Shown here piece after piece: positions 5,600-55,704 of a stretch of 64,000 nucleotides of DNA (positions are counted from its first letter, which is position 1; each line of letters begins with the position of its first letter). This stretch comes from Minisyncoccota bacterium (lineage in GTDB: Bacteria > Patescibacteriota > Minisyncoccia > Phycocordibacterales > UBA9973): the NCBI GenBank assembly GCA_025453495.1, contig JALOQM010000001.1, forward strand, positions 15,664 through 79,663, read 5' to 3'. A program made the translations under genes and the position numbers. The notes beneath the pieces are model-generated. The model ran no database searches, was not told the DNA's origin, and worked only from the letters and a program-made list of their open reading frames with translations.

Positions 5600-5848
5600 C
5601 TACGAGATCAGACTAGATTTTAGAATTCTCACAATACCAGTATCCGCGTCAACTTCAACCAAATCGCCATCTTTTAAAATTTTCGTTAAATTATCAATAC
5701 CGATAATGCAAGGCTTCTTAAACTCTCGTGCAACTATAGCCATGTGAGACAAAATGTTTCCATTTTCTATGAGAATAGCACCGGTGCGCAGGTAAGAGAT
5801 CTCGATAATATGAAGGGTATCAGTAATTTTGATCTCTTGGGCAAGCAT
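5600..5848 (-). CDS. Stand-alone PEP-utilising enzyme mobile (phosphohistidine swivel) domain; possible gene remnant
   Basis: SHMAIVAREFKKPCIIG and DGDLVEVDADTGIV are the canonical PEP-utilisers motifs. Only 82 aa with no flanking catalytic domains, and a stop codon lies upstream in frame. Confidence 0.5.
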   Translation of the reverse strand: MLAQEIKITDTLHIIEISYLRTGAILIENGNILSHMAIVAREFKKPCIIGIDNLTKILKDGDLVEVDADTGIVRILKSSLIS

Positions 5849-6077: not shown

Positions 6078-6785
6078 TTAGCAAAGACCAGCCCCAATAG
6101 TTTCAAGCTTTTCCTTAACTCTCTCCCATTTAGGGTACTTTTCATCAAGTAATCGCCAGAACTTTGTATTGTGATTTTTGTATTTCAAATGACAAAGCTC
6201 ATGAATTATTACGTAGTCGATACAATCTTTTGAAGTATGAATTAGTTTAGGATTAAGAAATATTTTGTCTTTGTTGAGAAAACTACCCCAACGTTTCTTC
6301 ATTTCTCGAGTAGCAAGAATAGGAGTATTTTTATATTCAAACTTATTTAACATTTCCTTGAATCTATCTTGAAAAACACTTTCTGTTTTTACTTCAAACC
6401 ATTCATCAACCAGCTTTTTATTGTGGCGACTGTTTGAAACCTCTTTTGTGGTGTAAATAGTTAGAAGTCCTCTTGTTAATGAAACAAGGTCCTCTTTGCC
6501 ACGTCTTACGACCAGCTTATATTGTCTACCAAGATATAAATATCCCTCGCCAGAAATATATTCTTTTTCGTAAATCTTTCGTTGGTACTTTTTGAAAAAT
6601 GAAAGCTGTTTTTCTAACCAGAACCACTTTTTCTGTAAGAAGTTTTCTATTCTTTCATTATCGGTTTGTAGTGGACACTTAAGAATAATACGTAAGTCTG
6701 GAGTGACAGTGAGAGACAGTGTTTTACGATCTTGTTTTATAAGTTGGTATTCATATACAAATGTTCCAAATATGAATTCTTTCAT
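6078..6785 (-). CDS. DUF45/YgjP-like zinc metallohydrolase (WLM/M48-like HExxH)
   Basis: HELCHL motif. This family is often encoded next to type I hsdR genes. Confidence 0.7.
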   Translation of the reverse strand: MKEFIFGTFVYEYQLIKQDRKTLSLTVTPDLRIILKCPLQTDNERIENFLQKKWFWLEKQLSFFKKYQRKIYEKEYISGEGYLYLGRQYKLVVRRGKEDLVSLTRGLLTIYTTKEVSNSRHNKKLVDEWFEVKTESVFQDRFKEMLNKFEYKNTPILATREMKKRWGSFLNKDKIFLNPKLIHTSKDCIDYVIIHELCHLKYKNHNTKFWRLLDEKYPKWERVKEKLETIGAGLC

Positions 6786-6789
6786 AAGA

Positions 6790-9700
6790 TTAAGTGAATA
6801 AATCGAAGTTATTTTCTGCTAACAGCATTACATTATCAATGACAGCTTTGATGTGGTCGTTGTCTATTTCAATACCTTTTTCTCCTTTAACTACATCATA
6901 AAGATAGTCATCAATACTATTTCGCATCTTACGCTTAACGTCCATGTTTTTATACCAATCAACAATAGCCTCATTCTTAATGATTGCGAAAATATCAAGA
7001 ATTATAGAAATATATAATTCTTCACTAAGCTTTAGACTCTCAAACTGAGATCGTAAGTTACGGTAAAAAATATCAGAACCTTTATTTGTCTCAATATTTT
7101 CTGGAAGACTTTCATCCTTCTTGTTCACAACATCGTCACGAATTAACTTCATTTGTTTCAATGCTTCAACATCCGCAAGTTTACCTTGTCGCATCTTTTC
7201 AAGAATTTCTGAAATCTTTTTAGAAAACTTTTCGTAAAACTCAGGGTCAGTATCAAGTTTTTCGGTGATAGTTTTTTGTGTTTGTGCGGCGATAGCCTCA
7301 GCCTTTGATTTATCAGATCCAAGATTTTCAACAGCTTCTTCAAAAAGCTTTCTATCTGTAATGTTTACTTGTTTTGTTAGTAATTCAACCCCGCGAGCAT
7401 CAACATATTTATCAAGAATGTTAATAAGTGACTGCTTGTATTCTAATAGATCGACACGGTCTGCATATTGCAAACTAGCCGCCTTACGAAGCTCAGCAAA
7501 CTTTTTCAACTCACGCTTGTATAAATCAAGGTGTTTAAATTCATGCACGAAGTCTTGCAAGACAAAACACTCACTCAAATTCTTAATAAAAGCATTGAGT
7601 GTTTTGTAGAATGTTTCTCGTTTAGGTTGATCAGCAAGAAACTGTAAGTACACCTCATCATCAGATGATCCTTTTATTTCTTTAAATAAATCATGAACCA
7701 ATGAATAGCTCTGCTCGAGTTCCTGAATCTTATCTGCCACATCGATGAGGGTACCCTTCACATCGTTCTCATCATAGTTACCGAATAGCTTCATCGCTGT
7801 CTTAATATTTTTTGCGTTCTCAGAATAGTCAACAATATACCCTGCTGTCTTCGGTTTCTCTTTTGTATTTTCATAGAGACGATTTACACGAGCAATAGCC
7901 TGGAGTAAATCATGATCATGTAAATCTTTCGCTAAGTACAAGACGGTATTTCTAGGCGCATCGAATCCCGTGAGCAACTTACTCACAACAATAATAATTT
8001 CAACTCCGTCATCGTTATACTTAAAACTATCAACAACATCTTTCTCAAACTTCTCAACACTACTGTAATTTTTCTTTAAGTCCTCGAGATACTTAACAAC
8101 CTCTTTTTTATGTGTATCTTCTTCATCACCATCATCGTGTTCATCAGAAATCACAAGGGCTGTATTTATTTTTCCTGAAGTCTCAAATGCTCTTTGAAAC
8201 AAAACAGCTGAAAACTTTGACGGAGCAACGATTTGCGCTTTCAATCCAGTTCCCTGAAAATTTTCAATGAAATGTTTTTCAATATCAATAGCTATTTCTG
8301 AAATTCGATTTGGGTTATTCTGTATAATCTTTGTTCCAGCGTGCTTTTGTAGTTCCTTCTTTTGTTTATCATTAAGCCCCTCTACGATTCTTTCCATGCG
8401 TCTGTCTACCTGTTCCTGATTTTGAACAAGTTCTACATATCTTCCCTCGTAAATTAATGGGAGGATAACCTTGTCAGCCAAAGCATCATCGATAGTGTAT
8501 CTATCAATTTCCCCTCCAAATTTATTCCAACTTTTATCATTCTTTAAAAGAGGAGTTCCTGTAAATCCAATATAGCAAGCATTCGGTATAACACGGTTCA
8601 TCTCAAGATTAGCTATTCCATACTGCGTTCTGTGGGCTTCATCAATTAAAACAAAAATATTTTTATCTTTGTCTATAACAGAACCTTTTTTCCCGGCAGT
8701 TTGAAATTTTTGGACCAAAGTAGTAATAACTGCGAGTTCCTTATTCTGGATAAGATCAAGTAGATGTTCGCCACTTGTAGCCTGAACAACGTCTTTCTTA
8801 AGGTTACAGTTCTTGAACGTATCCTTGATTTGTTTATCGAGATCTCGACGATCGGTGACAATAATCACTCGAGGGTTGAGAATATGAGGGTCTTCAATAA
8901 GAGCCTTCACAAACATCACCATAGTGAGCGATTTACCAGATCCTTGTGTGTGCCATACGAGTCCACCTTTTCGGCGAGTGATGCCTTGCTCAGTAGTTTC
9001 TTCTTCCTCTATACGCTTGAGCATCTTGTGAATAGCAAAATATTGCTGATAGCGTGAGAGCTTCTTTACTCCTGCATCGAAAAGAATGTAATTCTTGGTG
9101 AGGTCAAGTAACCGCTTTGGTTCAAATAAAGAAAATATACCTCGATCTTGCTCAGTAGGTAATCTGTCTGTTCTTTGCTTATGTCCCTCGGTGTAGCCGT
9201 TGAGATCTTCGAGAATCTGCTTGTATACATCGGCATCAATAGGCTTCTGTATTAGCTTGCCAATCTGTGTATTGAGGTCTTCTTCTTTTGCACCTTTTTC
9301 TTTCCAAACAGCATAGAACTTGTTAGGTGTGCCTGTTGTTCCGTATTGCAAATCTTTTCCATTGGTACCAACGAGAAGCTGGGTATAGGTATAGAGCTTT
9401 GGACAATACTCAGGACCTTGGTTTCGGTTCATCTGGTTGATGGCCTCTTTCACATCAACACCAGACTTTTTGTTCTCAATCACTGCAAAAGGAATGCCGT
9501 TCACAAAACACACAATATCAGGACGGATATTCTGTTTACCACTCGCTACAAATTCAGCAGATACATGGAATGCATTATTCTGTGTGTTCTCGAAGTCAAT
9601 AAACTTGAAGTTCTTTGATATCTTTTTGCCTCCATGGCTTACCTTTATAGTCTTGCCACCACTGGTAGGCATGATGATGTTGTAGATCTTTTGAGCGGTA

Positions 9701-9975
9701 TCAATAAGTCCTTCGTATTGGATATGCTCAAGCTCATCGATAGCGTCACGAACATCTTTTTCACTGAACTTGTAGGTAGTTCCATCAACTTCGTACCCGT
9801 TTATGTCCATGAGTTTCTCGGTAGCAATATCAGCAAGGATGAAGTTTGAAGTATCACCGGAACGCTGTCTGAGTGCTTCCTCGGCAGAAATATATGTATA
9901 GCCCATGCTCAAGAGAAGCTCTATGAATGGGAGCTGTGATTGTTTTGCTTCATCAAAATGTACTTTTTCTAACAT
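6790..9975 (-). CDS. hsdR: Type I restriction enzyme R subunit
   Basis: 1061 aa with SF2 helicase motifs (GSGKS Walker A, DEAHR box) and the type I R architecture. Confidence 0.9.
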   Translation of the reverse strand: MLEKVHFDEAKQSQLPFIELLLSMGYTYISAEEALRQRSGDTSNFILADIATEKLMDINGYEVDGTTYKFSEKDVRDAIDELEHIQYEGLIDTAQKIYNIIMPTSGGKTIKVSHGGKKISKNFKFIDFENTQNNAFHVSAEFVASGKQNIRPDIVCFVNGIPFAVIENKKSGVDVKEAINQMNRNQGPEYCPKLYTYTQLLVGTNGKDLQYGTTGTPNKFYAVWKEKGAKEEDLNTQIGKLIQKPIDADVYKQILEDLNGYTEGHKQRTDRLPTEQDRGIFSLFEPKRLLDLTKNYILFDAGVKKLSRYQQYFAIHKMLKRIEEEETTEQGITRRKGGLVWHTQGSGKSLTMVMFVKALIEDPHILNPRVIIVTDRRDLDKQIKDTFKNCNLKKDVVQATSGEHLLDLIQNKELAVITTLVQKFQTAGKKGSVIDKDKNIFVLIDEAHRTQYGIANLEMNRVIPNACYIGFTGTPLLKNDKSWNKFGGEIDRYTIDDALADKVILPLIYEGRYVELVQNQEQVDRRMERIVEGLNDKQKKELQKHAGTKIIQNNPNRISEIAIDIEKHFIENFQGTGLKAQIVAPSKFSAVLFQRAFETSGKINTALVISDEHDDGDEEDTHKKEVVKYLEDLKKNYSSVEKFEKDVVDSFKYNDDGVEIIIVVSKLLTGFDAPRNTVLYLAKDLHDHDLLQAIARVNRLYENTKEKPKTAGYIVDYSENAKNIKTAMKLFGNYDENDVKGTLIDVADKIQELEQSYSLVHDLFKEIKGSSDDEVYLQFLADQPKRETFYKTLNAFIKNLSECFVLQDFVHEFKHLDLYKRELKKFAELRKAASLQYADRVDLLEYKQSLINILDKYVDARGVELLTKQVNITDRKLFEEAVENLGSDKSKAEAIAAQTQKTITEKLDTDPEFYEKFSKKISEILEKMRQGKLADVEALKQMKLIRDDVVNKKDESLPENIETNKGSDIFYRNLRSQFESLKLSEELYISIILDIFAIIKNEAIVDWYKNMDVKRKMRNSIDDYLYDVVKGEKGIEIDNDHIKAVIDNVMLLAENNFDLFT

Positions 9976-9979
9976 ATAG

Positions 9980-10825
9980 TTATTTTAATTTCTTCTTACT
10001 TTTTTGCGCCGGCAGATAGTTCTCACCAGTGACGACCTTTCTCCCTGTTTTTTCTTCGAGTGCAAGTCTGGCATCTTTTGCAATCTTGCCACCTTTTTGC
10101 GCAGGAATTTTATTTTCTTCCAATCCTTTCGCTTCGGTATTCTCTGCAATCTGTCGTGTTGAAAGCTCCGCAAGTGCGGTAAAGATGAGCTCAGCCTCAG
10201 ACATATGATCACGAACATTTGCGGTCTTCCCCAAGCCTTTCAATTTTTTATGATCTTGCACACCAAGCCCACTCCACTCTTGGTGAATGATATTCGTCAG
10301 AATCGCATACTCCTTACCCTCTTCTACACCCGCAGATTTCCAATAGTCGGTGAGCTTGTTGCGTGTCTCTTGCCCCATCATGCGCTGCTGTATCCACTTG
10401 TCGCTTCGGCCATGCTTTTTCCAATACTCGCGCGAACGGTTGAGTGCTATCTCTGGGTTTACCATTTCGTCGATTCTCTCCTGTCCGACCTTTGCAAGCC
10501 ACTGCTTGAAAGGCTCGGCCTTAGGTGAAGAAATGGATTGGATAATACGGAACATACCTTGCAAATTGGACATATTTTCTACACGCTTCTTACCATCACG
10601 AGCAACTACGTCAAGGGGGGTACAAATTGTACCCCAGTTGACAGAAAGCTCAGGATCACGTGTACGCATCTTTTTGATATATTGTTTTACATCTTTCGAC
10701 TCAGAAAGCACCCGTACGACATCAGAAACAGCAAAATACCATTGCTCGTCATGCCACACGCGACGCACCTCTGTTGCCTCAAATATTGCGGGTACTATAT
10801 TTTTTTGTATTTGTGGTTTTTTCAT
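9980..10825 (-). CDS. Bro-N domain protein, DNA-damage-inducible protein D (DinD)-like
   Basis: N-terminal Bro-N-like block (TEVRRVWHDEQWYFAVSDVVRVL). The C-terminal HKKLKGLGKTANVRDHMSEAELIFTALAELST pattern resembles DinD. Confidence 0.55.
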   Translation of the reverse strand: MKKPQIQKNIVPAIFEATEVRRVWHDEQWYFAVSDVVRVLSESKDVKQYIKKMRTRDPELSVNWGTICTPLDVVARDGKKRVENMSNLQGMFRIIQSISSPKAEPFKQWLAKVGQERIDEMVNPEIALNRSREYWKKHGRSDKWIQQRMMGQETRNKLTDYWKSAGVEEGKEYAILTNIIHQEWSGLGVQDHKKLKGLGKTANVRDHMSEAELIFTALAELSTRQIAENTEAKGLEENKIPAQKGGKIAKDARLALEEKTGRKVVTGENYLPAQKSKKKLK

Positions 10826-10829
10826 ATAT

Positions 10830-11114
10830 TTATTTGATTGGCATTGCTGATAATGTTTCTCGCCCAGCTAAATAAGATTTGAGCCTATTTTTTATAAACA
10901 TCTTTCCGTGGTATGTTTTTAAATACTTCTCTCGATGAATTGCGTCATTTTCATCAAGACACGCTTCATAATATACAAGCTCGAGTGGTCTTCGTGGTGC
11001 GGTAGATTCCACTTTGCCTTTTTGGTGTTGCTCAAATCTTAATTTTAAATTTTTACTATAACCAGTATAAAATTTGTTGTCTTTTTTTGATTGTAATAAG
11101 TAAGTGTAGTACAT
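10830..11114 (-). CDS. GIY-YIG nuclease superfamily protein (UPF0213/YhbQ-like)
   Basis: MYYTYLLQSKKDNKFYTGYSKNLKLRFEQH is a classic GIY-YIG core; 94 aa. Confidence 0.7.
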   Translation of the reverse strand: MYYTYLLQSKKDNKFYTGYSKNLKLRFEQHQKGKVESTAPRRPLELVYYEACLDENDAIHREKYLKTYHGKMFIKNRLKSYLAGRETLSAMPIK

Positions 11115-11125
11115 AAAATTTAAAA

Positions 11126-12358
11126 TTATTTAGCGGGGTCTGGTGTACGAATTGTGCCAGTGATCAAATTATTGAGGAGATACTTCTTTTGATCCTTAAT
11201 GATTTGAAGTTTCTTCTCAAGTTCTTGGATTTCATCTTCGGCAGTATTGAGTATCTTTGCGATTGCTTCTTGTTCTTTTATATCTTTAGGTAGATATATT
11301 TTGCATTCACCAATATCTCCCAGATTAATCTTTATAGGGAAAGCAACGTGTAGTGTTTTGGCTCTCAGCTCATTTTGAAAATCCTTAGTTGTAAGAAAAA
11401 AAGATAACGCTTTTGAATCAAAGGACCTATTAACTTTAAGAAGCGCTAATGTGACGTAGAAAGATGCTTTAACATCCCAATCTATATACTTGATGGCACC
11501 AATACTTCCAATTCGCGTCATCAAAATATCACCTCTTTCTATTCGAACTTTCTTTATCTCAGATTCATAAACTTTCTCTGAAATATACTTTGTATTTTTA
11601 AAGTCATTAGAAGTTACATGTTCGACACTATAGAATGGAATCCCGTGCTCGACATATGTAGGAGTCTGGTGAGTGCCATCGTATATTTTACAAACGTCTT
11701 TTAATAAAAGCGTCTGCCATTTATCTCCAAATCCAGACAAGCGTTTTTTGCCAGAAAGTAAATTTTGTTTTAAGGCTAATCTTATATTTTTCTTGATCTG
11801 AATTTTCTTTGAAAGTTTTTCAATTGATTTATCCCAAGTTTCAAGAACTGAAACGATGCGATTTTGTTCTGGGAGAGGAGGAAGTTTTATTTTTATAGAT
11901 TTAAGAATTTGCAAATTCAAACCACCACGACCACCGTCACCGGCAGAGATAGATCTTAATTCTTGATATCGTCTTTCTAAATCTGACCTTAAAAAACTAT
12001 AGCTAATATCTTTCTTTGGTATAAAAAAAGCTATGGACTGATTTGTAGTAAGTGAAATTTTATTTACAGCAACCTTTCCTCTTGTAGAACCCTGACCAGC
12101 TAAAGCAATCAAAACACTGTTTGCTGGCACTATTTTCGCTGATGAATTTTTAAAACCTTCATCAGTTATAAAATTTTCTGTTTGATAAATATTTTTCTTA
12201 TTGATTTCGGCTGAATTAGCCCATGGAATATTTCCACCTTCCCAGTATTCCAAAACATCTGTCGAAGGTGTACCTCCAGCAGAAATATCACAAACAACAC
12301 CAATCTTTACTTGCTGCCATTCTGGATGAATATTTTTTTGTTGTTGATTAGTTTTCAT
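11126..12358 (-). CDS. hsdS: Type I restriction-modification specificity subunit (two target-recognition domains)
   Basis: 410 aa with two TRD-like halves and conserved LPPLPEQ-type spacer and C-terminal repeats. Confidence 0.85.
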   Translation of the reverse strand: MKTNQQQKNIHPEWQQVKIGVVCDISAGGTPSTDVLEYWEGGNIPWANSAEINKKNIYQTENFITDEGFKNSSAKIVPANSVLIALAGQGSTRGKVAVNKISLTTNQSIAFFIPKKDISYSFLRSDLERRYQELRSISAGDGGRGGLNLQILKSIKIKLPPLPEQNRIVSVLETWDKSIEKLSKKIQIKKNIRLALKQNLLSGKKRLSGFGDKWQTLLLKDVCKIYDGTHQTPTYVEHGIPFYSVEHVTSNDFKNTKYISEKVYESEIKKVRIERGDILMTRIGSIGAIKYIDWDVKASFYVTLALLKVNRSFDSKALSFFLTTKDFQNELRAKTLHVAFPIKINLGDIGECKIYLPKDIKEQEAIAKILNTAEDEIQELEKKLQIIKDQKKYLLNNLITGTIRTPDPAK

Positions 12359-12415
12359 AATTTCACTGGTTTAATTGAGATATCTATAATTTAGATATCT
12401 CTTACTGCCCTCAAA

Positions 12416-12640
12416 TTATTCTTTACTCTCGTATCCTTTTTTACAATTCAGCATAATGTAAGAATTTAATCCTTGGCCAGCTTTGGCAAGTCTTTTCATT
12501 TCATTTACGTGAATTTCACCCGCACTTTGATTGGTGTATTTATAGATACTAGAGTCTTTAAATTGAACTCGTATAAAATCTACACCAATTTCAAAACCTT
12601 TTACATTAGAATCTCCCCCTAAATTTGCGTATGTTTCCAT
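12416..12640 (-). CDS. KTSC-domain small protein
   Basis: FIRVQFKDSSIYKYTNQSAGEIHVNEMKRLAKAGQGLNSYIMLN fits the KTSC pattern (Y.Y...Y..L..A.S.G.YFN). Confidence 0.45.
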   Translation of the reverse strand: METYANLGGDSNVKGFEIGVDFIRVQFKDSSIYKYTNQSAGEIHVNEMKRLAKAGQGLNSYIMLNCKKGYESKE

Positions 12641-12699
12641 ATGTCATATTTGGCTAACTAATAATTAGTTTAACGACATTTCGGTCATTATAATGAATA

Positions 12700-13950
12700 T
12701 TATTCTTCTGAAGCTCGTTTAAATTTTTCTTGCATAGTCGGATTTCCTTTTGTTAATTTTTTAATAGTTAAATCATCAGCTTTATTATTTGCCAAACGAA
12801 GATTATTTTCCGAAGCCAAAAGATTGTCTTTAATCTTTTGAAGATGATCAATTGATTTATCAATCTCTTCTACAGCTGCTTTGAATTTTTGACTTGCTAA
12901 ATTGTAATTACGAGCAAATCCTTCCTTAAAAGCATTGAGGTTTTCTTCAAAGTGAGTAATATCTACATTTTGACTTTTCACAACAGCGAGTTCTGCCTTA
13001 TATTGCATCGAATTTAAAGCAGCATTTCGCAAAAGTGTGATAATTGGAATAAAGAATTGAGGTCGAACTACGTACATTTTAGGGTAACGATGGAATACAT
13101 CAACAATTCCAGTGTTATATAGCTCATTATCACTTTCAAGCAACGAAACTAGAACTGCGTATTCACACTTCTTTTCATTTCTATCCTTATCTAGTTCTTT
13201 CAAAAAGTCTTCATTCTTTTTCTTTGTAGCGGTAGTATCCGATTCATTTTTCATTTCAAACATTATTGAAATAATTTCATTACCTGCCTCATCATATTCT
13301 CGGTAAATATAGTCTCCTTTACTTCCAGTGGCTGAGTCATTATCTTTTTCAAAAGTAGCATTCTTAAAACCTGTTGCACGGAGTTTATTAAACTCAATTT
13401 CACAATGTTGTTCAAGAGTTTCGCCAAGCATTTTTGTTGAGAGCTTTACCTTCATGTCTTTGTAGCGCTCAATAATTTCATCTTTAGCTTTAAGCTCTGC
13501 CTCAAATTTACTATTTAAAGATAGTTCGATTTGTTGCTTTTCAGCATCCTTCATCTTTATCTCAGAAGCAAGATGGTCACGCTCTTTTTCAATTTTTGTC
13601 ACAGCCTCAGTGATTGCAAGTTTTTTTTCAGTTTCTGTCGATGAAAGCTTCGCTCGCAGTTCTGTTATTTCAAGTTCACTTTGAGACTTAGATAGATTTA
13701 CTTCACGCTCCTTTTCAGCCTTAAGTCTTGCGATTTCTAAATCTTTTTGAGCAAGGTCGTCTTTAATTTTATTTTTTACTTGCTCTTCAGCCAACTTTAC
13801 GGCACTCTCTTTTTCAGCCTTCAAAAGACTTTCTCTTTTGAGAAGCTCTTCTTCAAATTGGTGATCTCGTACTTGTTTAAGAATATCAGCATAACCTGCT
13901 TCATCAATTTTAAATGCTTTTTTACAATGTGGGCAAATTATTTCATTCAT
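12700..13950 (-). CDS. DUF2130-family protein (zinc ribbon, coiled coil, C-terminal domain)
   Basis: The N-terminus [28 protein letters not shown] is the hallmark start of DUF2130, followed by a long coiled coil. This family recurs inside type I R-M operons. Confidence 0.65.
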
Positions 13951-13957
13951 ACGTTTA

Positions 13958-15469
13958 TTATTTAATCCCTAATTCTTTTAAATATCCAACCATTTGTTTT
14001 TCAAGCTTCGCAAGCTCAGGCTCAAGAGCTTCAAGTTCTTTGAGGTTTGCTTTTATGTCCACAGGAGCTTCTTCCTCAAACGTATCGACGTATCGAGTGA
14101 TGTTGAGGTTAAAATCATTTTCCTCAATTTCCTTAAGAGAAACCTTGCGGGCAAATTTCTCTACATCCTTATGTTTCTTGTAGGTAGAGTAAATCTTCTC
14201 GATGTTCTCATCGGTAAGAATGTTCTGAGCTTTATTTGGTTTATATTCCTTTGAAGCCTCGATAAAGAAAACATCTTTTTTAGATTCGTTCTCTCCGCCT
14301 TTCTCACGTGATCGGTCAATAATAAGGATGGCTACAGGAATTCCCGTTGTCTGGAACAATCCCGCAGGTAGTCCGATAACTGCATCTATAAGATTTTCCT
14401 TGAGGAGCTGTTCGCGAATCTTTCCTTCAGCTCCACCACGGAAGAGAACGCCGTGTGGCACTACGACTGCCATATGGCCAGTCTTCGCCTTGAGTGTCTC
14501 AACCATGTGCGTGATAAAGGCAAAATCACCTTTATCCTTTGGTGGAACACCACGCCAGAATCGCTTGTATTTGTCGGCTTCTGCGTGCTCGGCACCCCAT
14601 TTTTTAAGAGAAAACGGAGGGTTTGCCACGATCGTGTCAAACTTCATCAAATGGTCGTTCTCTACAAGGAGAGGATTGTTCAATGTGTCACCCCATTCAA
14701 GTCGGGCTGAATCCTTTCCGTGGAGGAACATGTTCATGCGAGCGAGCTGATAGGTTGATCCTGTTGATTCCTGACCATAGAGTGCGTAGTTTTTTGAACC
14801 TTGTTTCTCAACTTCTTCACCTGCAAGGAGGAGGAGGCCACCTGAACCCATACAAGGATCACAAATACGTGCCCCTGCTTGTGGCTCTGCGAGCTTTGCA
14901 ACGAGCTGGGCAACGTTTCTCACAGTGAAAAATTCGCCCGCTTTCTTGCCCGCGTCGGCACCAAAGCGTTCGATCATATACATATATGAGTTACCGATGA
15001 TGTCGTCCTTCACGTCGCCGAGGTCAATCTGAGCAAAGTCCTGCACGAGATGGCGGAGCATCTTGTTTCGTTCAGCGAGCTTGCCGAGTGTTGATTCTGA
15101 GTTGAAGTCTACAGAAAATACTCCATCGAGTTTCTCTTTGTTTGTGTCTTCGATTCGATGAAGTGCTTTGTTGATTTCTTCACCAAGATTATCTTGCTCG
15201 ATTACCGAATAGATATAATCGAATGAAGACTTTGGGGGAAGATAGAAGCGATCGAGCTTCATTTTTTCTTCGATACGCTTTGTGTCGCTACCAAAACGCT
15301 CTTTGTATTCAGCATACTTCTTCTTTGAGAGGTCAGAGAGGTATTTAAAGAAAAGCATTGCAAGAACGTAGTCTTTGTAGATACCTGCATCTACCTGAGT
15401 ACGAGAAGAATCCGCTGCGTCCCAGAGGATTTTGTTTAGGTCTTCTTGTGTATATTTTTGAGTATTCAT
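13958..15469 (-). CDS. hsdM: Type I restriction-modification N6-adenine DNA methyltransferase subunit
   Basis: HsdM N-terminal domain plus the catalytic [11 protein letters not shown] (NPPF) motif and an AdoMet-binding region. Confidence 0.9.
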
Positions 15470-15470
15470 A

Positions 15471-16082
15471 TTAGTTATTAATTAGGTTAGTAAACGATGC
15501 GTTGATAATGTTTTTTTGTAATTCTTGTTTTCTCTTTAGTATCCGTTCTTGGTCTGTTATGTTTTCGTGGAGTGCGATGATGGATTTTTGAATATGTATC
15601 GGGGGTATGGGGATTTTAAAATCAATCAAATTTTTTACTAAAATACTTTGTATATAGGACCCGCCCGTAACTATTTGAAGTAATTCTTTTTGCCCGATTT
15701 CTGAGTTGAGGTATAGCGATACATATTTAGGGAGGACTGTGACATCTTGAATTCGTATTACATGAACCGAAGATGATGGCATCACCTTTGATTCATCAGA
15801 TACAAAAACTGCGGATCGAAATGAGCCTGGCCCTGACCCTCTAGAGACAAGCAAAATGTCATTATGTTGTAGGAAGTAGGGGTTTCTCAAAGATTTATCT
15901 GTAATTGTTGTAAAACCAGTTATATATTGAATATCTTGGTTTGTTTGTACATTTTTAGCTTGAAGCACAAAAATATCCCCATTTGGGTCATTTTCTATAG
16001 ACCCACGGAATGTGTACCCTGAAACAATGTCTGCTAATTGGCTCAATTTCTTGTGCATGTAAAAAGCATACTGCATTTTCAA
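15471..16082 (-). CDS. Half-size HsdS-like specificity protein (single TRD plus conserved C-terminal repeat)
   Basis: 203 aa. It ends with IPIPPIHIQKSIIALHENITDQERIL, typical of the S-subunit conserved region, and abuts hsdM. Confidence 0.65.
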   Translation of the reverse strand: MKMQYAFYMHKKLSQLADIVSGYTFRGSIENDPNGDIFVLQAKNVQTNQDIQYITGFTTITDKSLRNPYFLQHNDILLVSRGSGPGSFRSAVFVSDESKVMPSSSVHVIRIQDVTVLPKYVSLYLNSEIGQKELLQIVTGGSYIQSILVKNLIDFKIPIPPIHIQKSIIALHENITDQERILKRKQELQKNIINASFTNLINN

Positions 16083-16146: not shown

Positions 16147-17502
16147 TTGGAGGGGTTGCGTCATCAATGTAGTTGTATGAAAACAACAGCACCAATTGGC
16201 TACGAAATGACACAAGCAGCCCAAGCACCAATAAAAGTGAGGTATTGCCTCTATGCCCGTAAATCAACGGAATCTGAGGAAAGACAGGTTCTTTCAATAG
16301 ATTCGCAGATTAAGGAAATGTTACAGCTCGCCGAGAGAGAAAACTTGGAGATTGTAACAATGAAGCGAGAAAGCCATTCAGCAAAAGAAACTGGACAACG
16401 ACCAGTCTTTAACGAGATTATTGAGGAGATACGGCAAAAGAAGTACAACGGCATACTGACATGGGCACCTGACCGTATTAGTAGAAATGCCGGAGACTTG
16501 GGAAAGATAGTAGATCTGATGGATGCAGGATTGTTACAAGAAATACGTATATATGGTCAAAAATTTTCAAACAATCCAAACGAAAAATTCTTGCTAATGA
16601 TTCTTGGATCGCAAGCGAAATTAGAGAATGACAATAGAGGTGTGAATGTAAAACGAGGATTGCGTACGAGAGTTGAAATGGGTCTCTGGCCTGGGGTAGC
16701 ACCACTTGGATACTTAAATCAAAAACATATGGATAAAAAGTGTCAGGTAATAGTCGATCCACAACGTGCTCCTGTCATCAAAAAGATATTTGAAAAAGTA
16801 GTATACGAACACTATTCAGGAAGAAAGTTATATAACTGGTTACGACACGAACTGAATTTCTATACTCGTGGCAACAAACCTCTGACCTTAAGCGGAATAT
16901 ACCGAATACTTGAAAATCAGTTCTATCATGGAGTGTTTGAGCATCCGAGAGGAAGCGGTAACTGGTATCAAGGAAAACATGAGCCACTCATCACACAGGA
17001 ACTATTTGAAAAAGCTCAAGCACAACTAAAGCGAGATAATATACAACGAGAGAATAAAGAATTCGCATTCACGAAACTATTCACCTGCGGATACTGTGGT
17101 AGTGGAATATCAGCAGAGGAAAAATGGAAACAACTCAAAGATGGTACGCATGCGAAATACATCTACTACTTCTGCTCAAGAGCGAGAGATAGAAACTGCA
17201 AGAATATGTACATACGAGAGGAAGATTTAATACTTGAGCTATTGAAGATCCTCGACAAAGTAAACATCAATGAACTAGGTATGCGAAAGAAACTAGAAGA
17301 TGAGATCGCAAGGTTCAATATCTTCCAAAGATCAGTGCTTGGAGCAACAGACAAGATTAAAAACAACAAAGATACTGAAATACGAAACTTCGCTAAGTAT
17401 ATTTTGAAAGAAGGAGCAGTTGGAGAGAAACGAGAGCTGCTAGCCAACCTAAGATCGAGAATAATATACAAAGACAAACAACTTATACTGATTGCTGAAT
17501 AA
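16147..17502 (+). CDS. Large serine recombinase (resolvase catalytic domain, recombinase domain, zinc ribbon)
   Basis: YARKSTESEERQVLSIDSQ catalytic block, a recombinase domain and a CGYCGS zinc ribbon. The likely true start is an internal Met at 16177 or 16207. Divergent from the R-M operon. Confidence 0.85.
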   Translation: MEGLRHQCSCMKTTAPIGYEMTQAAQAPIKVRYCLYARKSTESEERQVLSIDSQIKEMLQLAERENLEIVTMKRESHSAKETGQRPVFNEIIEEIRQKKYNGILTWAPDRISRNAGDLGKIVDLMDAGLLQEIRIYGQKFSNNPNEKFLLMILGSQAKLENDNRGVNVKRGLRTRVEMGLWPGVAPLGYLNQKHMDKKCQVIVDPQRAPVIKKIFEKVVYEHYSGRKLYNWLRHELNFYTRGNKPLTLSGIYRILENQFYHGVFEHPRGSGNWYQGKHEPLITQELFEKAQAQLKRDNIQRENKEFAFTKLFTCGYCGSGISAEEKWKQLKDGTHAKYIYYFCSRARDRNCKNMYIREEDLILELLKILDKVNINELGMRKKLEDEIARFNIFQRSVLGATDKIKNNKDTEIRNFAKYILKEGAVGEKRELLANLRSRIIYKDKQLILIAE

Positions 17503-17519
17503 ATTGTATAATCTAGTGT

Positions 17520-18080
17520 ATGGGACAAAATAACACTCATAATTCTGAGTCGAGGGAGCATAGATTAGAAAGATTGAAAAGTCACCCTGTTGAAGCTATC
17601 GAAACACTTCTAAACTCTATAGCTAATTTTTTCAATAACGAAATTCTACTAACACCGACACACTATCAAACATCGTTAATGTTTTTAGGTATCCATGCTT
17701 CTGCCCTTACAATTGGAGAAGTATTTTTTCAGCACAAAAGTGATTTAGATAATTATAAGGATTTTATGCGTACGTTTATCGATGGAGAAACTGAAGATAC
17801 AAAATTTTCTCTTGTTGCTGAACATATACACAACTGGAGAAATATAATTGCGCATCAATGGATAGGATCTCTAGGTCATCGAGTGGAATATGATTATCAG
17901 GCTGAATTAGGCTGGCAGATGGTCGAAGACACTCTTATTATAAATCCAAGAATATACTGCGATAAATACATGGATGCTTTTTCAGCTAGAGGGAGAATTT
18001 GGCAATATGATTCCATATTTACTGAAGAACAGATCGTAAAAGCTCACGAACAAATTGTTCGTAAATACGAAAATCGTTAA
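17520..18080 (+). CDS. Hypothetical protein
   Basis: 186-aa ORF with no recognisable domain, followed by a terminator. Confidence 0.35.
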   Translation: MGQNNTHNSESREHRLERLKSHPVEAIETLLNSIANFFNNEILLTPTHYQTSLMFLGIHASALTIGEVFFQHKSDLDNYKDFMRTFIDGETEDTKFSLVAEHIHNWRNIIAHQWIGSLGHRVEYDYQAELGWQMVEDTLIINPRIYCDKYMDAFSARGRIWQYDSIFTEEQIVKAHEQIVRKYENR

Positions 18081-18084
18081 ACAA

Positions 18085-18113
18085 AAATACACGAAATAAT
18101 CGTGTATTTTTGT
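18085..18113 (+). terminator. Rho-independent terminator
   Basis: Hairpin atacacg-aaataat-cgtgtat followed by a T-run. Confidence 0.5.
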
Positions 18114-18180
18114 TTATAATTTATGTAATCGGGTCGCACATTCGTCATAGACAAATGGGTTGACTCCGATACTAAATTGT

Positions 18181-18270
18181 CTTGGCGGAGAGGGAGGGAT
18201 TCGAACCCTCGATACCCTTTCGGATATACAACCTTTCCAGGGTTGCCGTTTCAACCGCTCACGCACCTCT
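18181..18270 (-). tRNA. tRNA-Ser (anticodon GGA), class II, CCA encoded
   Basis: Manual cloverleaf. Acceptor GGAGAGG/CCTCTCC; anticodon stem CAACC/GGTTG with loop CTGGAAA; long variable arm with GAAA tetraloop; T-arm GAGGG-TTCGAAT-CCCTC; 3' end GCCA. Confidence 0.85.
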
Positions 18271-18357
18271 CCAGATACAAGCGTCAAACGAATCTGTTAT
18301 ACCGTAAATCAACAAAAAAAGCGACACAATATAATGTGTCGCTTTGGTATAGTGCTT

Positions 18358-27781: not shown

Positions 27782-27890
27782 TTCTGGCGACTACCTACTT
27801 TCCCCACAAGGAGTATCATCGGCTCTAGAGGTCTTAACTTCTCTGTTCGGAATGTAAAAAGGTGTTGCCCCTCCGACTAATCACCAGAAC
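27782..27890 (-). rRNA. rrf: 5S ribosomal RNA
   Basis: Reverse complement aligns base-for-base with the bacterial 5S consensus (TTCTGGCGACTACC...TCACCAGAA). Confidence 0.85.
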
Positions 27891-28478
27891 AAAATATTCA
27901 ATGGCTAAAGAAAAAACGTACTGCTTCACAACAGTACGCTCGAATATTTGATAAACATTTTCTACAGGGTGAATTTTAATCACAATTTTATTATATTTCG
28001 CTGCATAAGCAGTGAAAATCAAGAAGTCATTGACCTGTTTTGAGAGTTTCCTCTCTATTCCAAGCTTGCTTCTTGTTCGATAAAATCTTTCAATGCTTTT
28101 TGTTATCACTCACATGCCCGTAACAGCAATGGCTATTACGATAGCACGTGGTAAGCACATCCCTTTTCAGAAATTTCTTTCTAAATTGGTCTCTAGTAGT
28201 TAGTTCATCTTATATCTAAGCACATTATTTCAAGTAATTATTGTATTGTCAAGTGGTGATTTCCAAATTTCCTAATAGGAATCGGATAATTAGTACTTCT
28301 CGGCTCCACACATTACTGCGTTTCCACCTAAAGCCTATCAACGTAATCATCTCTTACGATCCTCAAACGATTCCTAATCTTGAAGCTGGCTTCCTTCTTA
28401 GATGCTTTCAGAAGTTATCCATTCCGAACATAGCTACCGGACAGTGCCGTTGGCACGACAGCCCGCACACCAGAGGTT

Positions 28479-28510
<32 letters not shown>

Positions 28511-28562
28511 CCCTTCTCAAGAATCAACGCCTGCAGTAGATAGGAGACCAACCTGTCTCACG

Positions 28563-29094
28563 CATCTATGTTTTACATCCATCATCCTGCGTTACGGGAT
28601 AACAGATCCTTCATTACTGAAGGGATCGGACTGTAACTTATTCATTGATTCACGAATTATGATTTATGATTCAAGAACGCACACATTCAGTCTCTACGGG
28701 TACTATTCGTACTGGAAAGTGGAGTCAATAAGTTTTCACTAATTGACTCACAGTGGACTTTGCATGAAGCCAGTTTAAGATTCATAACAATCCAAGCCTG
28801 GTCACCCAAGCGTATCTGGCACTGCCATTGGTGGTATATTAAACCCCGACAGTATTGATTCCACTTTCCAATACAAATAATTTCCCTCGGTATTGTCCTC
28901 TGATTACTCAGTTCGGATTTTACCGATATACGTGTACTTCACATCACATATCACTATATGATGCCGCCGTGCGTGCGCATACCGCGCACCATGGTCTTAA
29001 TCTCAGATTAAAACATCCTGAAAAAGAATTTCTTCCCTTCAGGTTCCTCAACGGGTTCAAACTGTTAAACCCACAAGGTCATTCTTATGACCTT
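28563..29094 (-). mobile_element. Putative ORF-less group I self-splicing intron inside the 23S rRNA gene
   Basis: About 532 nt interrupt the universally contiguous 23S sequence GGGTT(C)AAACCGT | CGTGAGACAG (E. coli ~2590s; the I-CreI-type homing site). The insertion ends in G before exon 2, the upstream exon ends in T, and no ORF of 60 aa or more lies on the rRNA strand. Confidence 0.55.
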
Positions 29095-29410
29095 AACGGT
29101 TTGAACCCAGCTCGCGTAACTTTTTAATTGGCGAACAGCCAAACCCTTGGCACCTTCTCCAGCGCCAGGATAAGTTGAGCCGACATCGAGGTGCCGAACT
29201 CCGCCGTCGATATGAACTCTTAGGCGGAACTAGCCTGTTATCCCTAGAGTAGCTTCTATCCCTTAATCTTCGGCCGCGTCTAAAGCGGACCATCGGTTCA
29301 CTTGGTTCTGCTTTCGCACCTGCTTGGCATGTACGCCTCACAGTCAAGCCAGCTTGTGCCCATACACTATCGGCACGGTTTCCATTCGCGCCTAGCTGAC
29401 CTTAATAAAG

Positions 29411-29451
<41 letters not shown>

Positions 29452-29742
29452 ACCCACCAGATACTGTCCCTTTGCGTTTTTGCCGCAAGGGTTAGAACAT
29501 GCCACGAGAAAGAATGGTATTTCACTGACGACTCCATATCAACCAAGATCGATACTTCAAAGTCTCCCATCTATGCTACGCAGTCACGCAACATGCTCAA
29601 TATCAAGCTATAGTAAAGCTTCTAGGGTCTTTTCGTCTAACTGCAGGTAATCGGCATCTTCACCGATATTGTATTTTCACCGAGCAAGTCCCCGAGACAG
29701 TTGTCCAGTCATTACGCCATTCGTGCGCGTCAGAACTTACCT

Positions 29743-29793
<51 letters not shown>

Positions 29794-30499
29794 CAGGGCT
29801 TATATCAGTCAGCTTGAGATAATCTCACCGCCGATATTTGACCTTCTGGCATTGGTCAGGCGTCACCCCCTATACATCCTCTTGCGAGTTCGCAGGGAGC
29901 TGTGTTTTTGATAAACAGTTGCCAGACATACTTTCGCTGCGCCCCATGAAATTAATCATGGGGAAGCCTTATTCCGAAGTTACGGCTGCTTTTTTGCCGA
30001 GTTCCTTGGGGACCTCTCACTCGTTCGCCTTGGTCTACTCGACCTGACTACCTGTGTCGGTTTACGGTACGGTTCCTGCGACGTTATACTTAGAGAATTT
30101 TCTCGGAAGCGTGCTTTGTGAAATCTATCCCGGCGAACCGGAACATTTCCGCTGTGTTTGGAGACTGCTATCTAAAGCAGATGCAGGGATTTTCCTCCGC
30201 ATCGGTCCTCACACCACGAACCCAAATCCAATAATGGGCTCCACATACAACCCTTCGTCCTCCCATCGTACGTCGCAGAAGTCACGGAATATTAACCGTG
30301 TGTCCATCGCGTGCGGCTTTCGCCATCCGCTTAGGCCCGACTAACCCTTGGCTGATTGACATTACCAAGGAAACCTTAGTCTTTCGGCGTGCGGGGATTT
30401 CACCCGCATTGCGGTTACTTGTGCCAACATTCTTACTTCCACACGCTCCAGATTGGCTCACGCCTTGTCCTTCACAGCAGAGTGGAATACTCTCCTACC

Positions 30500-30758
30500 G
30501 CTTGCAAACTTCACAGAGGAAGTGAGCGACGTACGAATGTCGCTCACATTTTTTTCTAAATACACACCGTTGGTACGATGCGTAGAACCAATTTGGCACT
30601 CTCACGTTAAACGTGAATCAGAAAAATTCGTGGGGAGAGCCGGATTCGAACCGGCACGGACGTTAGTCCATCAGATTGAAGTCTGACGAGTCTGCCAATT
30701 CCTCCATCCCCCTCAAGAATAAAATAAAAAGAACAATTCCTCTGTGAAGTTTGCAAGC
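30500..30758 (-). repeat. 23S rRNA intervening-sequence (IVS)-like insertion with a perfect 22-bp inverted-repeat stem and 215-nt loop
   Basis: gcttgcaaacttcacagaggaa (30500-30521) is the exact reverse complement of ttcctctgtgaagtttgcaagc (30737-30758). The loop contains extra hairpins and a tRNA-like T-arm (GCCGG-TTCGAAT-CCGGC). The site matches the helix-45 region where IVSs occur in other bacteria. Confidence 0.6.
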
Positions 30759-30834
30759 CCTCAAATTCGGTACTACGCTTAGCCCCGATTATTTTCGGCG
30801 CAGAGATTCTCGATGAGTGAGCTGTTACGCTTTC

Positions 30835-30866
<32 letters not shown>

Positions 30867-31539
30867 TCATTGTTTAAGAACCTCTACATCCTTGTTTTGC
30901 ACTCAGCGTAGATTTAGGGACCTTATTTAGAGATCTGGGCTGTTTCCCTTTTGACTGATGGAGCTTCGCCCCCATAGTCTAACTGCTACGTTGTAACTCT
31001 TGGTATTCGGAGTTTGATAGGTGTCGCGAGATTGCTCCCTGTCGAAACCTTCCAGTGCTCTACCCCCAAGAGGATCACGTAACGCTAGCCCTAAAGCTAT
31101 TTCGGAGAGAACCAGCTATTACCAGGTTCGATTAGCTTTTCACTCCATACCACAGGTCATCCGAAGACGTTGTACGATCTACCGGTTCGGGCCTCCCCCC
31201 GACCTTCGTCGGGGTTCACCCTGCCCATGGCAAGCTCACCTGGCTTCGGGTCTTATGTGTGCTACCAATTACGCGCTATTAACACTTGGTTTCCCTGGGA
31301 CTCCCCCCGCCTCACTTTTCGAAGTCTCTTGTCTTTCGTTTTACAACAAACATGAGACCTCACATTTTTGATGCTCCTTGTATTTCAAGGAGTTTCAAAA
31401 AGTGGGGCGGGGTTAGCCGAGCAACACACATAAACTCGTTGGCTCATTCTTCAATAGGCACGCCGTGACGGTAGCAAGCTACCGCTCCGACTCCTTGTAA
31501 GCATACAGTTTCAGGTCTATTTCACCGCCCTTATCGGGC

Positions 31540-31581
<42 letters not shown>

Positions 31582-32282
31582 TTTAAGAGTATTTAGCCTT
31601 GCCGGTTAGTGCCGGCAGATTCCTCCAAGCTATTCGTGTCTTGAAGTACTCAAGAACAGTGACAAAGAAGATATGTTATTTTCGTCTACAGGGCCATCAC
31701 CTTCTGCGGCGTTGCTTTCCAGCAACTTCAACTAACAACATATTTTTTGACTTCTCTAGTAAACTACATCACTGCCTTACAACCCCGACATCCGAAGACA
31801 TCGGTTTGGGCTGTTTCCTTTTCGCTCGCCGCTACTTAGGAAATGTCGATCTTACGATCATTGTTTTCTGTTCCTCCTGGTACTGAGATGTTTCACTTCC
31901 CAGGGTGCGCTCCCGCGTGCGTTCGCACGAAGGCTCTCGAGGGTTGCTCGAGAAGGTTTCCCCATTCGGACATCTTCGGGTCAAAGGTTGCTAGGCACCT
32001 CACCGAAGCTTATCGCAGCCACGCCACGTCCTTCATCGCCTCTTAAAGCCAAGGCATCCACCGTATGCTCTTAATTTCCTATTAGGAAATTTAAAAATCA
32101 CACTTGCACTCCGACACAAGGTCGGAGTTTGTTTTCTTCACGATGCGACCGCTCGCCCCATGAAGAAAACGACTTGCTATACAATTCTTACCTACCTGTC
32201 TCAACACGGCTCAAAGACCCAGAAAGTCTGGTGTGTTGGACAGAATGCAATTATCAATCAGCTGTCTTCCGGTCAATTGTCT

Positions 32283-51984: not shown

Positions 51985-52152
51985 ATGTTTGCAAGGAGCA
52001 CTTTACTATGCCCTGCCTAAAAATGCAAGGGTTTCTGAGAAAATTGATAAAAATGAGCTTCTCTTATATAGTGAGAAGGTTCGGGTCAGTTGCATCCCTA
52101 AACCAAAAGCAGTACTTTTAGTCGGGCGAATAAATTTGAAAATTGTTTTAGC

Positions 52153-52228
52153 CACCCTTAGCTCAGTTGGTAGAGCAGTCGTCTTATACACGACCGGTCC
52201 ATGGTTCGAGTCCATGAGGGTGGACCAG
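52153..52228 (+). tRNA. tRNA with anticodon UAU (Ile2-type by anticodon; identity not otherwise established); C1:G72, CCA encoded
   Basis: Canonical 76-nt numbering: acceptor CCACCCT/AGGGTGG, T8, A14, G18G19, anticodon stem GTCGT/ACGAC with loop CTTATAC, T-arm CCATGG-TTCGAGT, A73-CCA. The D-arm is identical to tRNA-Lys-type sequences. Confidence 0.75.
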
Positions 52229-55592: not shown

Positions 55593-55704
55593 ACAAAAAC
55601 TTGACGAATACCTCAAGTATGGTATTTTTATATCGTTAATTCACGTCTTAACCATTCACCGTGGACAGGGCGATGAATCGCTCTTTCCATATAAAAACAC
55701 GACA

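Follow-up and report, generated by a model that had tools for sequence, protein, structure and literature searches.

A Type I restriction-modification operon of Patescibacteria with a conserved backbone, variable accessory genes and a putative miniature GIY-YIG element in hsdS

The stretch of DNA analysed here (the window) comprises 64,000 nt of contig JALOQM010000001.1 from a Minisyncoccota bacterium and harbours a Type I restriction-modification (R-M) operon in which several further genes are nested. An earlier inspection of its letters and open reading frames (ORFs), hereafter the sequence-only reading, had described nine co-directional, tightly packed genes, with extra genes embedded among those for R-M. 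All nine ORFs are present on the minus strand, exactly at the coordinates listed below in the order of transcription, and the gaps between them, as derived from these coordinates, measure 1, 7, 59, 57, 11, 4, 4 and 4 nt (E values of the profile matches are given in brackets):

15471-16082, minus strand: half-size HsdS with a single target-recognition domain (Pfam Methylase_S, 8.3e-11; PADLOC Specificity_I, 2.4e-19)
13958-15469, minus strand: HsdM, Type I methyltransferase (N6_Mtase, 3.5e-99; HsdM_N, 6.2e-21)
12700-13950, minus strand: DUF2130 protein, cargo of the slot between hsdM and hsdS (PF09903, 7.6e-90)
12416-12640, minus strand: 74-aa protein, second gene of the slot between hsdM and hsdS (without Pfam match)
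11126-12358, minus strand: full-length HsdS with two target-recognition domains (Methylase_S, 4e-41 in two stretches; Specificity_I, 3e-65)
10860-11140, minus strand: GIY-YIG mini-element of 281 nt (delimited by filled versus empty site, conservation among 77 copies and paired ends)
10830-11114, minus strand: GIY-YIG ORF of 94 aa (PF01541, 5.5e-16)
9980-10825, minus strand: DinD-like protein, cargo of the slot between hsdS and hsdR (Bro-N, 4.1e-12; PDLC04920, i.e. PDC-S13, 2.7e-111)
6790-9975, minus strand: HsdR, restriction and translocase subunit (SWI2_SNF2, 4.7e-76; HSDR_N, 1e-35; T1R_D3-like, 1.3e-22; TIGR00348, 480 bits)
6078-6785, minus strand: YgjP/DUF45 (SprT-like) zinc metalloprotease (PF01863, 2.6e-52; zinc motif HELCH, i.e. 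HExxH)

Eight of the nine gene labels of the sequence-only reading were backed by hidden Markov models from Pfam, NCBIfam and PADLOC, while the ninth, the label KTSC of the 74-aa protein, found sub-threshold similarity only; no housekeeping gene was found among the inserts. NCBIfam concurs with the hsdM and hsdR labels: HsdM scored 267 bits against TIGR00497 hsdM (cut-off 242.75), and HsdR carries an N-terminal nuclease domain together with a SWI2/SNF2 motor. With an HsdM, a two-domain HsdS and an HsdR in place, the operon is a real Type I R-M operon, the activity of which is predicted from family knowledge. For the half-size hsdS, the ATG near 16058 is the more likely start, yielding a protein of 195 aa and matching the public gene call. 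Scans of the locus for promoters and terminators gave nothing above shuffled expectation. An exact copy of the locus is found in two public assemblies, i.e. a 211-kb JGI contig and a Logan contig.

Three sister operons (L087, L091 and L092) were retrieved via close homologues of the DUF2130 and DinD-like proteins. The comparison of slots covered four sister operons, counting that of the window, and three plasmid operons (L182, L183 and L184). The genes at the junctions of the sister operons are as follows:

Window operon: before hsdM, none; between hsdM and hsdS, DUF2130 and the 74-aa gene; between hsdS and hsdR, GIY-YIG and DinD-like genes; after ygjP, none
L087 operon: before hsdM, a 108-aa gene; between hsdM and hsdS, DUF2130 and an unrelated 107-aa gene; between hsdS and hsdR, empty; after ygjP, not identified
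L091 operon: before hsdM, a 108-aa gene; between hsdM and hsdS, DUF2130 and the 74-aa gene; between hsdS and hsdR, DinD-like gene, GIY-YIG absent; after ygjP, DUF4357
L092 operon: before hsdM, none; between hsdM and hsdS, Abi_alpha instead of DUF2130; between hsdS and hsdR, DinD-like gene; after ygjP, RadC

By sequence comparison, the conserved backbone of these operons consists of the half-size HsdS, HsdM, HsdS, HsdR and the YgjP/SprT-like protease, and it represents a widespread Type I family. Identity across the sister operons reaches 81-90 % for HsdM, 72-85 % for HsdR and 49-81 % for YgjP, and only 31-41 % for HsdS, as would be expected, low HsdS identity being the usual mark of diversifying specificity. 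Each of the four sister operons, like an Acetobacter plasmid, encodes the half-size HsdS 5' of hsdM, and YgjP directly follows hsdR in all seven operons, i.e. in 4/4 sister operons and in 3/3 plasmids (from Klebsiella, Methylobacter and Acetobacter). Because of this conservation across sister and plasmid operons, YgjP and the half-size HsdS are to be counted among the core genes of this Type I family and are no add-ons; the sequence-only reading had taken DUF45 for a trailing accessory gene. The operon of Acetobacter sp. AC2005 plas2 consists of half-S, M, S, R and SprT with zero inserts. It resembles the window operon in gene order and in its hsdR-coupled protease (M is 52 % and YgjP 33 % identical), but embedded genes are missing from the plasmid operon, whereas that of the window contains four additional ORFs and its hsdS tail is interrupted. 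In the Methylobacter plasmid operon, an Abi gene stands between S and R; in the Klebsiella plasmid operon, YecA and a cold-shock-domain gene do.

The cargo differs from operon to operon. The 74-aa gene has a 78 % identical copy in L091, and the DinD-like protein is 73-88 % identical in the sister operons. The Abi_alpha protein of L092 corresponds to PADLOC PDC-S47, and the DUF4357 gene directly after YgjP in L091 (L091:12755-13585) to PDC-S14 (1.5e-74), while the GIY-YIG gene is confined to the window lineage among the operons compared. A second, shorter YgjP-like gene (L091:15022-15534) lies 2 kb further on from the DUF4357 gene. Since the sister operons carry different subsets of the accessory genes and the backbone also exists empty, these genes appear to be independent cassettes and not parts of one machine, and the single composite module of the sequence-only reading does not fit this distribution. 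Three junctions of the backbone would then be variable slots, each filled by a separate event or events. We assign a probability of about 70 % to this explanation as a whole, the variable slots included.

According to this explanation, the locus would be a Type I operon of a widespread five-gene family in a Patescibacteria (‘Pacebacteria’) genome, located beside a large serine recombinase. HsdM and HsdS would methylate the host sites, HsdR would cut unmodified DNA, as predicted from family knowledge, and the two S genes probably yield two specificities that share M and R. The slot between hsdM and hsdS would hold the DUF2130 gene, with a predicted nuclease fold, and the 74-aa gene, the slot between hsdS and hsdR the DinD-like gene, and the end of hsdS the GIY-YIG element, each insert being a separately mobile cassette that would exploit the transcription of the operon and co-inheritance with a defence system. 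The DUF2130 protein, presumably as a nuclease, and the DinD-like protein would act as stand-alone second-line defence effectors, and YgjP would proteolyse HsdR or stalled HsdR-DNA complexes.

The DUF2130 protein scored 301 bits against PF09903 (cut-off 26.7). More than 8000 candidate homologues were scored for this family, and in a scan of one genome per species a relative was encoded in at least 596 of the 600 stretches listed; among the matches listed, identity was 57-73 % across Patescibacteria, Bacteroidota, Proteobacteria, Verrucomicrobiota and Firmicutes. The gene is mostly solitary. Type I genes within 10 kb were found in 3-6 of the 80 best species-level loci, with hsdR directly upstream of DUF2130 in L005 and L011, a Type I system 3 kb off in L074 and weaker matches in L008, L038 and L073, and even homologues at 74-80 % identity stand in unrelated contexts. 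The 74-aa gene was found in none of these 80 loci. An obligate partnership of DUF2130 with R-M or with the 74-aa gene is therefore out. The sequence-only reading had regarded DUF2130 as a recurrent R-M hitch-hiker, but it is not a regular one, and for the 74-aa gene no linkage to R-M or to DUF2130 was found elsewhere.

Among the immediate neighbours of DUF2130 (n=144), Pfam domains comprised AAA_21 in 11 proteins, AAA_15 in 8, OLD-like TOPRIM in 6, HsdR domains in 2-3, GmrSD_N in 2 and EcoRI methylase in 1, and seven of the 144 matched PADLOC ‘Old’. OLD/ABC-type ATPases, HsdR and GmrSD are thus enriched next to DUF2130, which lives in defence islands, yet without specificity for R-M. Five related OLD-type ATPases are encoded immediately 5' of DUF2130 and on the same strand (L059, L064, L065, L073 and L080), and an OLD-type ATPase and DUF2130 may form a two-gene defence module. 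DUF2130 is listed in the PD-(D/E)XK superfamily (PMC3424549), and residues D213, E232 and K234 are invariant in 16 sequences. The predicted structure consists of a zinc ribbon, a helix of ~150 residues (coiled coil), an alpha/beta core and long C-terminal helices, with low confidence in the nuclease core. A profile search of the PDB returned coiled-coil noise only, and PADLOC-DB v2.0.0 holds no DUF2130 model, the sole match being that of the coiled coil to LmuB (4.7e-4). DUF2130 can be nominated as a testable defence candidate, given that it lacks such a model, occupies the slot of an Abi-type gene and has OLD-type ATPases as neighbours.

Two further observations concern the surroundings of DUF2130. 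In L059:8118-11407 and L064:8106-11419, as also in L065, L073 and L080, an OLD-family ATPase gene (PADLOC Old, 8.7e-58; AriA, 5.5e-47) ends ~2 nt before DUF2130, and in three Bacteroidota loci (L007:11297-17110, L009:11279-17089 and L010:11279-17089) an ORF of ~1,937 aa is found directly 3' of DUF2130.

The 74-aa protein remained without any Pfam match even at E<=5. Sub-threshold matches to KTSC (PF13619) occurred in 9 of 36 family members (best E 0.0068), the family profile matched PDB chain 7x8c, named KTSC, at a weak E of 0.87, and one homologue bears the name ‘KTSC’ in UniRef. The structural model (predicted local distance difference test, pLDDT, 86) has three strands and two helices, and Foldseek found no match to it in the PDB at E<=0.001. 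Pfam, the scan of single members, the PDB profile search and Foldseek having yielded sub-threshold signals only, the KTSC label was not retained; the protein is KTSC-like remotely at best, which is a lead and not a result. The family is small, with 89 clusters of proteins of 72-76 aa, and extends to Proteobacteria, where both of the contexts inspected are unrelated to R-M. The domain also recurs within large phage proteins (phrog_17428, 6e-22; phrog_24656 ‘virion structural protein’, 9.5e-13). The 74-aa protein may serve DUF2130 as a partner or regulator, and then in this lineage alone.

These distributions bear on the alternative that the inserts form an integrated composite module, i.e. that they are wired to the restriction complex as guardians resembling PrrC, which would sense inhibition of HsdR, HsdM or HsdS and trigger a nuclease-based abortive response. 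There is a precedent, since PrrC, an anticodon nuclease embedded in the EcoprrI Type IC locus, is activated upon inhibition of the enzyme. The operon-tight spacing points in the same direction, as do the recurrence of DUF2130 with the 74-aa gene in L091, that of the DinD-like gene at the same junction in L091 and L092, and the position of DUF2130 directly after hsdR in L005 and L011. However, the subsets of inserts vary among sister operons and the backbone is known without any, ~92-96 % of the 80 DUF2130 loci are free of Type I genes within 10 kb, neither the 74-aa family nor the GIY-YIG element is linked to R-M, and copies of the DinD-like gene are known both from a transporter operon and from loci away from hsd genes. 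We therefore consider a composite module unlikely. The window operon shares with EcoprrI-PrrC the accessory effector gene inside a Type I operon as a potential second line of defence, but no PrrC or RloC homologue was found among the nine proteins (Pfam, NCBIfam and PADLOC), and the inserts also occur away from R-M.

The GIY-YIG gene is part of a discrete unit. Alignment of the junction between hsdS and the DinD-like gene with L091 and L092 revealed that ~281 nt are inserted ten codons before the hsdS stop, i.e. the last 10 codons of hsdS are displaced and the C-terminal 10 residues are replaced by the 4 residues of a new tail, DPAK, followed by a stop. The element consists of a 26-nt leader and an ORF of 84 codons. 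In the window, CGA stands where other copies stop (TGA or TAA), and the ORF reads into the old hsdS tail (RETLSAMPIK and stop), giving 94 aa instead of 84. Copies with 69-81 % identity are carried by 80 metagenomic loci (L097-L176). When 77 copies were aligned, the conserved stretch spanned positions -27 to +256 or so, counted from the ATG, beyond which conservation dropped to background, sharply at both ends, while the flanks were unrelated. In L106 (1390-1691) and L098, the same element resides within a DinD-like gene, between residues 179 and 184-186, with zero host codons lost. Presence and absence can thus be compared at homologous sites, i.e. filled versus empty at the hsdS tail and filled versus intact in the DinD-like gene.

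None of the 31 element-bearing loci of at least 5 kb contained hsd genes, which rules out GIY-YIG as an R-M partner; the sequence-only reading had counted it, together with the Bro-N gene, among the R-M accessories. Among the flanking ORFs (n=129), 106 lie on the strand of the element and 23 on the opposite one, and both housekeeping genes (MreB, pyruvate kinase and GAPDH) and small multi-copy genes are found among the neighbours. The comparisons show what, judged by its sequence, is a genomic parasite, i.e. a selfish insertion into hsdS. The junctions permit a 2-nt ambiguity and show no clear target-site duplication. No transposase of a known family (DDE, HUH, serine or tyrosine) was found, the GIY-YIG domain being encoded by the sole ORF of the element. 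No other copy was found within the window, and the 22-nt 3' end of the element had no exact match in IMG/VR. As side observations, the commonest neighbours in L097-L176 are small 23S_rRNA_IVP/bAvd-like (6) and PDDEXK_3 (3) genes, and tandem GIY-YIG copies occur in L099, L100, L110 and L140.

The GIY-YIG protein comprises the catalytic domain only and is without a DNA-binding domain; its nearest PDB structures, 1zg2 and 1ywl, are both UPF0213. Dunin-Horkawicz et al. (2006, PMC1564403) call this the bacterial Slx1-like branch and describe such a domain as “recently inserted” into an HsdR, that of Methylococcus capsulatus. At E<=0.001 the family counts 5266 cluster representatives, and at E<=1e-10 still 820; many carry extensions of 20-50 residues, which would fit fusions at insertion sites. 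A group I intron or other known RNA was rejected, as there is no room for a ribozyme and the NCBIfam ‘group I intron endonuclease’ matched at just E 0.0049; a search of the element against Rfam gave no match at the gathering threshold or at E<=10.

The ends of the element are complementary, and three helices (P1 to P3) can be drawn, the arms of which lie as follows:

11126-11138, minus strand: 5' arm of P1, ccccgctaaataa, pairing with 10863-10875 and also providing the new hsdS stop codon
11040-11053, minus strand: internal arm of P2, codons KNLKL, pairing with the leader at 11115-11128 (14 nt, 100 % complementary)
10870-10884, minus strand: 3' arm of P3, pairing with the internal stretch 11030-11044 (P3 is predicted by RNAalifold)

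In P1, the 5' (TTY)ACCCTGTTAAATAA is complementary to the 3' TTATTTAACAGGGT(RAA); in P2, the leader TAATTTTAAATTT pairs with the codons KNLKL; and in P3, AAGATTTGAGC pairs with GCTCAAATCTT near the 3' end. Compensatory changes are frequent: about a dozen copies combine the leader TAGCTTGAGG with CCTCAAGCTA, and a further variant combines ATCCTTTCAAAT with ATTTGAAAGGA. Across 63 distinct copies, P1 is 97 % paired with 11 double-change cells (shuffled mean 1.0, max 5), P2 93 % paired with 74 (shuffled mean 14, max 22) and P3 97 % paired with 14 (shuffled mean 1.5, max 6), counts that are inflated by related copies, although several variants are clearly independent. Sliding one strand by 1-2 columns lowers pairing to 38-64 %. 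Counts of G-T versus A-C mismatches in the 63 copies are too balanced to tell the folding strand or the molecule.

The single-stranded DNA or RNA of the element would thus fold as a three-helix junction, joining the 5' and 3' ends, the leader with codons 21-25, and codons 25-28 with the 3' end. Since Slx1-type enzymes are structure-specific, the folded ends could be the substrate recognised by the nuclease, and excision from or insertion into coding regions would be guided by structure. Alternatively, the fold could silence translation from read-through transcripts. It is tempting to speculate, at somewhat less than even odds, that the 281-nt unit stands for a class of miniature mobile element not described before, at home in Patescibacteria and in related lineages known from metagenomes.

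Known mobile elements resemble it in part. Free-standing homing endonuclease genes, e.g. the seg genes of phage T4, sit between or inside host genes. Those of the GIY-YIG type are similar in that they enter into or between host genes in sense orientation and split or fuse the host gene, but the element differs by its 84-aa protein, the lack of a DNA-binding domain and its Slx1/UPF0213 branch, and complementary ends with a covarying three-helix junction are not described for homing endonuclease genes in the literature searched. With transposons carrying terminal inverted repeats it shares complementary ends (97 % paired), but it is without a transposase of a known family. If confirmed to be autonomous, the element would be a very small, structure-bearing and abundant mobile element, and it would account for many short “GIY-YIG family protein” annotations and for odd N- and C-terminal extensions in Patescibacteria genomes.

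The DinD-like gene has been inserted precisely at the junction of the hsdS stop (plus 4 nt) with the start codon of hsdR. Its product matches PDC-S13 over its full length (residues 12-279 of 281), and the gene is embedded between hsdS and hsdR in the window, L091 and L092, so that the PADLOC check proposed with the sequence-only reading turned out in favour of the Bro-N gene as an embedded candidate. No paper naming PDC-S13 or testing it experimentally was found in the literature searched. E. coli DinD is SOS-induced and has been reported to inhibit RecA. The window protein resembles it in its N-terminal Bro-N domain and in a weak match of its C-terminal region to NCBIfam DinD NF008573 (E 2.8e-4, residues 141-261), but with 20 bits versus a cut-off of 242 it is no orthologue, and the genomic context differs.

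DinD-like proteins have phage homologues (phrog_15286, 3.6e-82). In other Patescibacteria, a MacA-MacB transporter operon carries a copy with 77 % identity between its ATPase gene and its permease gene (L177-L181, e.g. L181:5673-10084), and further copies are located away from hsd genes. In an alignment made by eye, ~35 nt 5' of the copy in the MacAB operon are roughly 70 % identical to an hsdS tail, which hints at a cassette that moved out of a Type I operon. The DinD-like gene may count as a candidate for defence, as a selfish cassette, or as both.

The last two cases raise the question of whether any insert defends at all. All of them could be cassettes, selfish or neutral, for which a gene-dense genome offers co-directional operons as landing sites, the R-M operon being a tolerated target. 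The GIY-YIG element is clearly such a case; it adjoins MreB, pyruvate kinase and GAPDH as well as the small multi-copy 23S_rRNA_IVP and PDDEXK_3 genes, and most of its flanking ORFs share its strand. The DinD-like gene within the MacA-MacB operon, preceded by the stretch that resembles the hsdS tail, and the phage homologues of its product fit this explanation as well. On the other hand, the slot of DUF2130 holds an Abi_alpha/PDC-S47 gene in a sister operon, known defence families are enriched among the neighbours of DUF2130, and DinD-like proteins have been recovered independently as embedded candidates in RefSeq. Cargo wholly devoid of defence functions is therefore rather improbable.

The reading of the inserts as independent cassettes, some of them with defence functions, is not free of difficulties either. 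The independence of the slots is derived from a small sample of four sister operons and three plasmids only, and the pair of DUF2130 and the 74-aa gene, like the DinD-like gene at the same junction, recurs at 73-91 % identity in close relatives, which could reflect functional coupling rather than shared ancestry. The roles of DUF2130, the 74-aa protein, the DinD-like protein and YgjP are purely predicted. For DUF2130, the model is poor in the nuclease core (pLDDT 68; 27-67 over residues 166-300), and its conservation across phyla is unusual for a defence gene, so that a role in DNA repair would also fit. Its presence inside a transporter operon may make the DinD-like gene a selfish cassette and not a defence gene, and the hsdS that lacks its last 10 codons may no longer work.

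That accessory genes are embedded in Type I loci is an established and already published pattern, and the composite concept of the sequence-only reading was in this general sense not new. Besides PrrC, a catalogue of 17,432 genes nested within BREX, DISARM and Type I R-M systems has been reported, from which 145 candidates were derived, and the PADLOC PDC models were built from such genes (Payne et al. 2024, bioRxiv 10.1101/2024.01.29.577857). The window operon is alike in that same-strand genes are nested among hsd genes, with the DinD-like gene as PDC-S13 and the cargo of the sister operons as PDC-S47 and PDC-S14. It differs in that DUF2130, the 74-aa gene, the GIY-YIG gene and YgjP are without a model in PADLOC-DB v2.0.0; the PDC systems themselves are candidates. 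New are the natural slot-by-slot comparison, in which the same backbone is seen empty and with differing cargo, the DUF2130 candidate in the slot of an Abi-type gene, and the structured GIY-YIG element. Our data also call for caution, as “guilt by embedding” may mislabel selfish DNA: one of five “accessory genes” is apparently a parasite truncating hsdS, and the DinD-like gene is also found in a transporter operon.

Upstream of the operon lies the recombinase, with its transcription pointing away from it:

16147-17502, plus strand: large serine recombinase (Resolvase, Recombinase and Zn_ribbon_recom domains; likely start 16177, 441 aa)

Recombinases of 53-57 % identity occur at the same position in L087 and beside DUF2130 and another Type I system in L088-90, and the gene is absent from L091 and L092. 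It is the probable mobility gene of an island. With related recombinases beside the R-M systems of L087 and L088-90, a recombinase-borne island may be the form in which the operon travels; no attachment sites were identified. Phase-variable specificity through shuffling of the half-size and full hsdS by this recombinase is practically ruled out by the lack of suitable repeats between the S genes: although the recombinase lies directly 5' of the spare half-hsdS and invertible hsdS loci are well known (PMC7672463), both S genes are co-directional, share no inverted repeats and only direct repeats of <=29 nt (72 % identity), the enzyme is a large serine recombinase of the integrase type, and L091, L092 and the Acetobacter plasmid retain the half-hsdS without it.

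Within 16147-18272, the recombinase is followed by an ORF of 186 aa without family match and then by tRNA-Ser(GGA); genes for tRNA-Ser and tRNA-Arg lie beyond the recombinase. On the other side of the operon, just past YgjP, an 82-aa ORF (5600-5848, minus strand) encodes a PEP-utilising ‘mobile’ domain alone and may be a gene fragment at the island boundary.

Elsewhere in the window, the 23S rRNA gene (28271-32084, minus strand) measures 3.8 kb versus the 2.9-kb model, with ~0.9 kb of insertions; rRNA insertions are typical of the Patescibacteria radiation. It adjoins the 5S rRNA gene (27782-27888, minus strand), a 16S rRNA gene is absent from the window, and an odd ‘tRNA’ called by ARAGORN (30630-30713) falls within the 23S rRNA gene. 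A tRNA-Ile gene with the anticodon TAT is located at 52152-52227 (plus strand), and a tmRNA gene with the tag ANKVASVKSPYASAFGFAPALA at 55210-55596 (plus strand).

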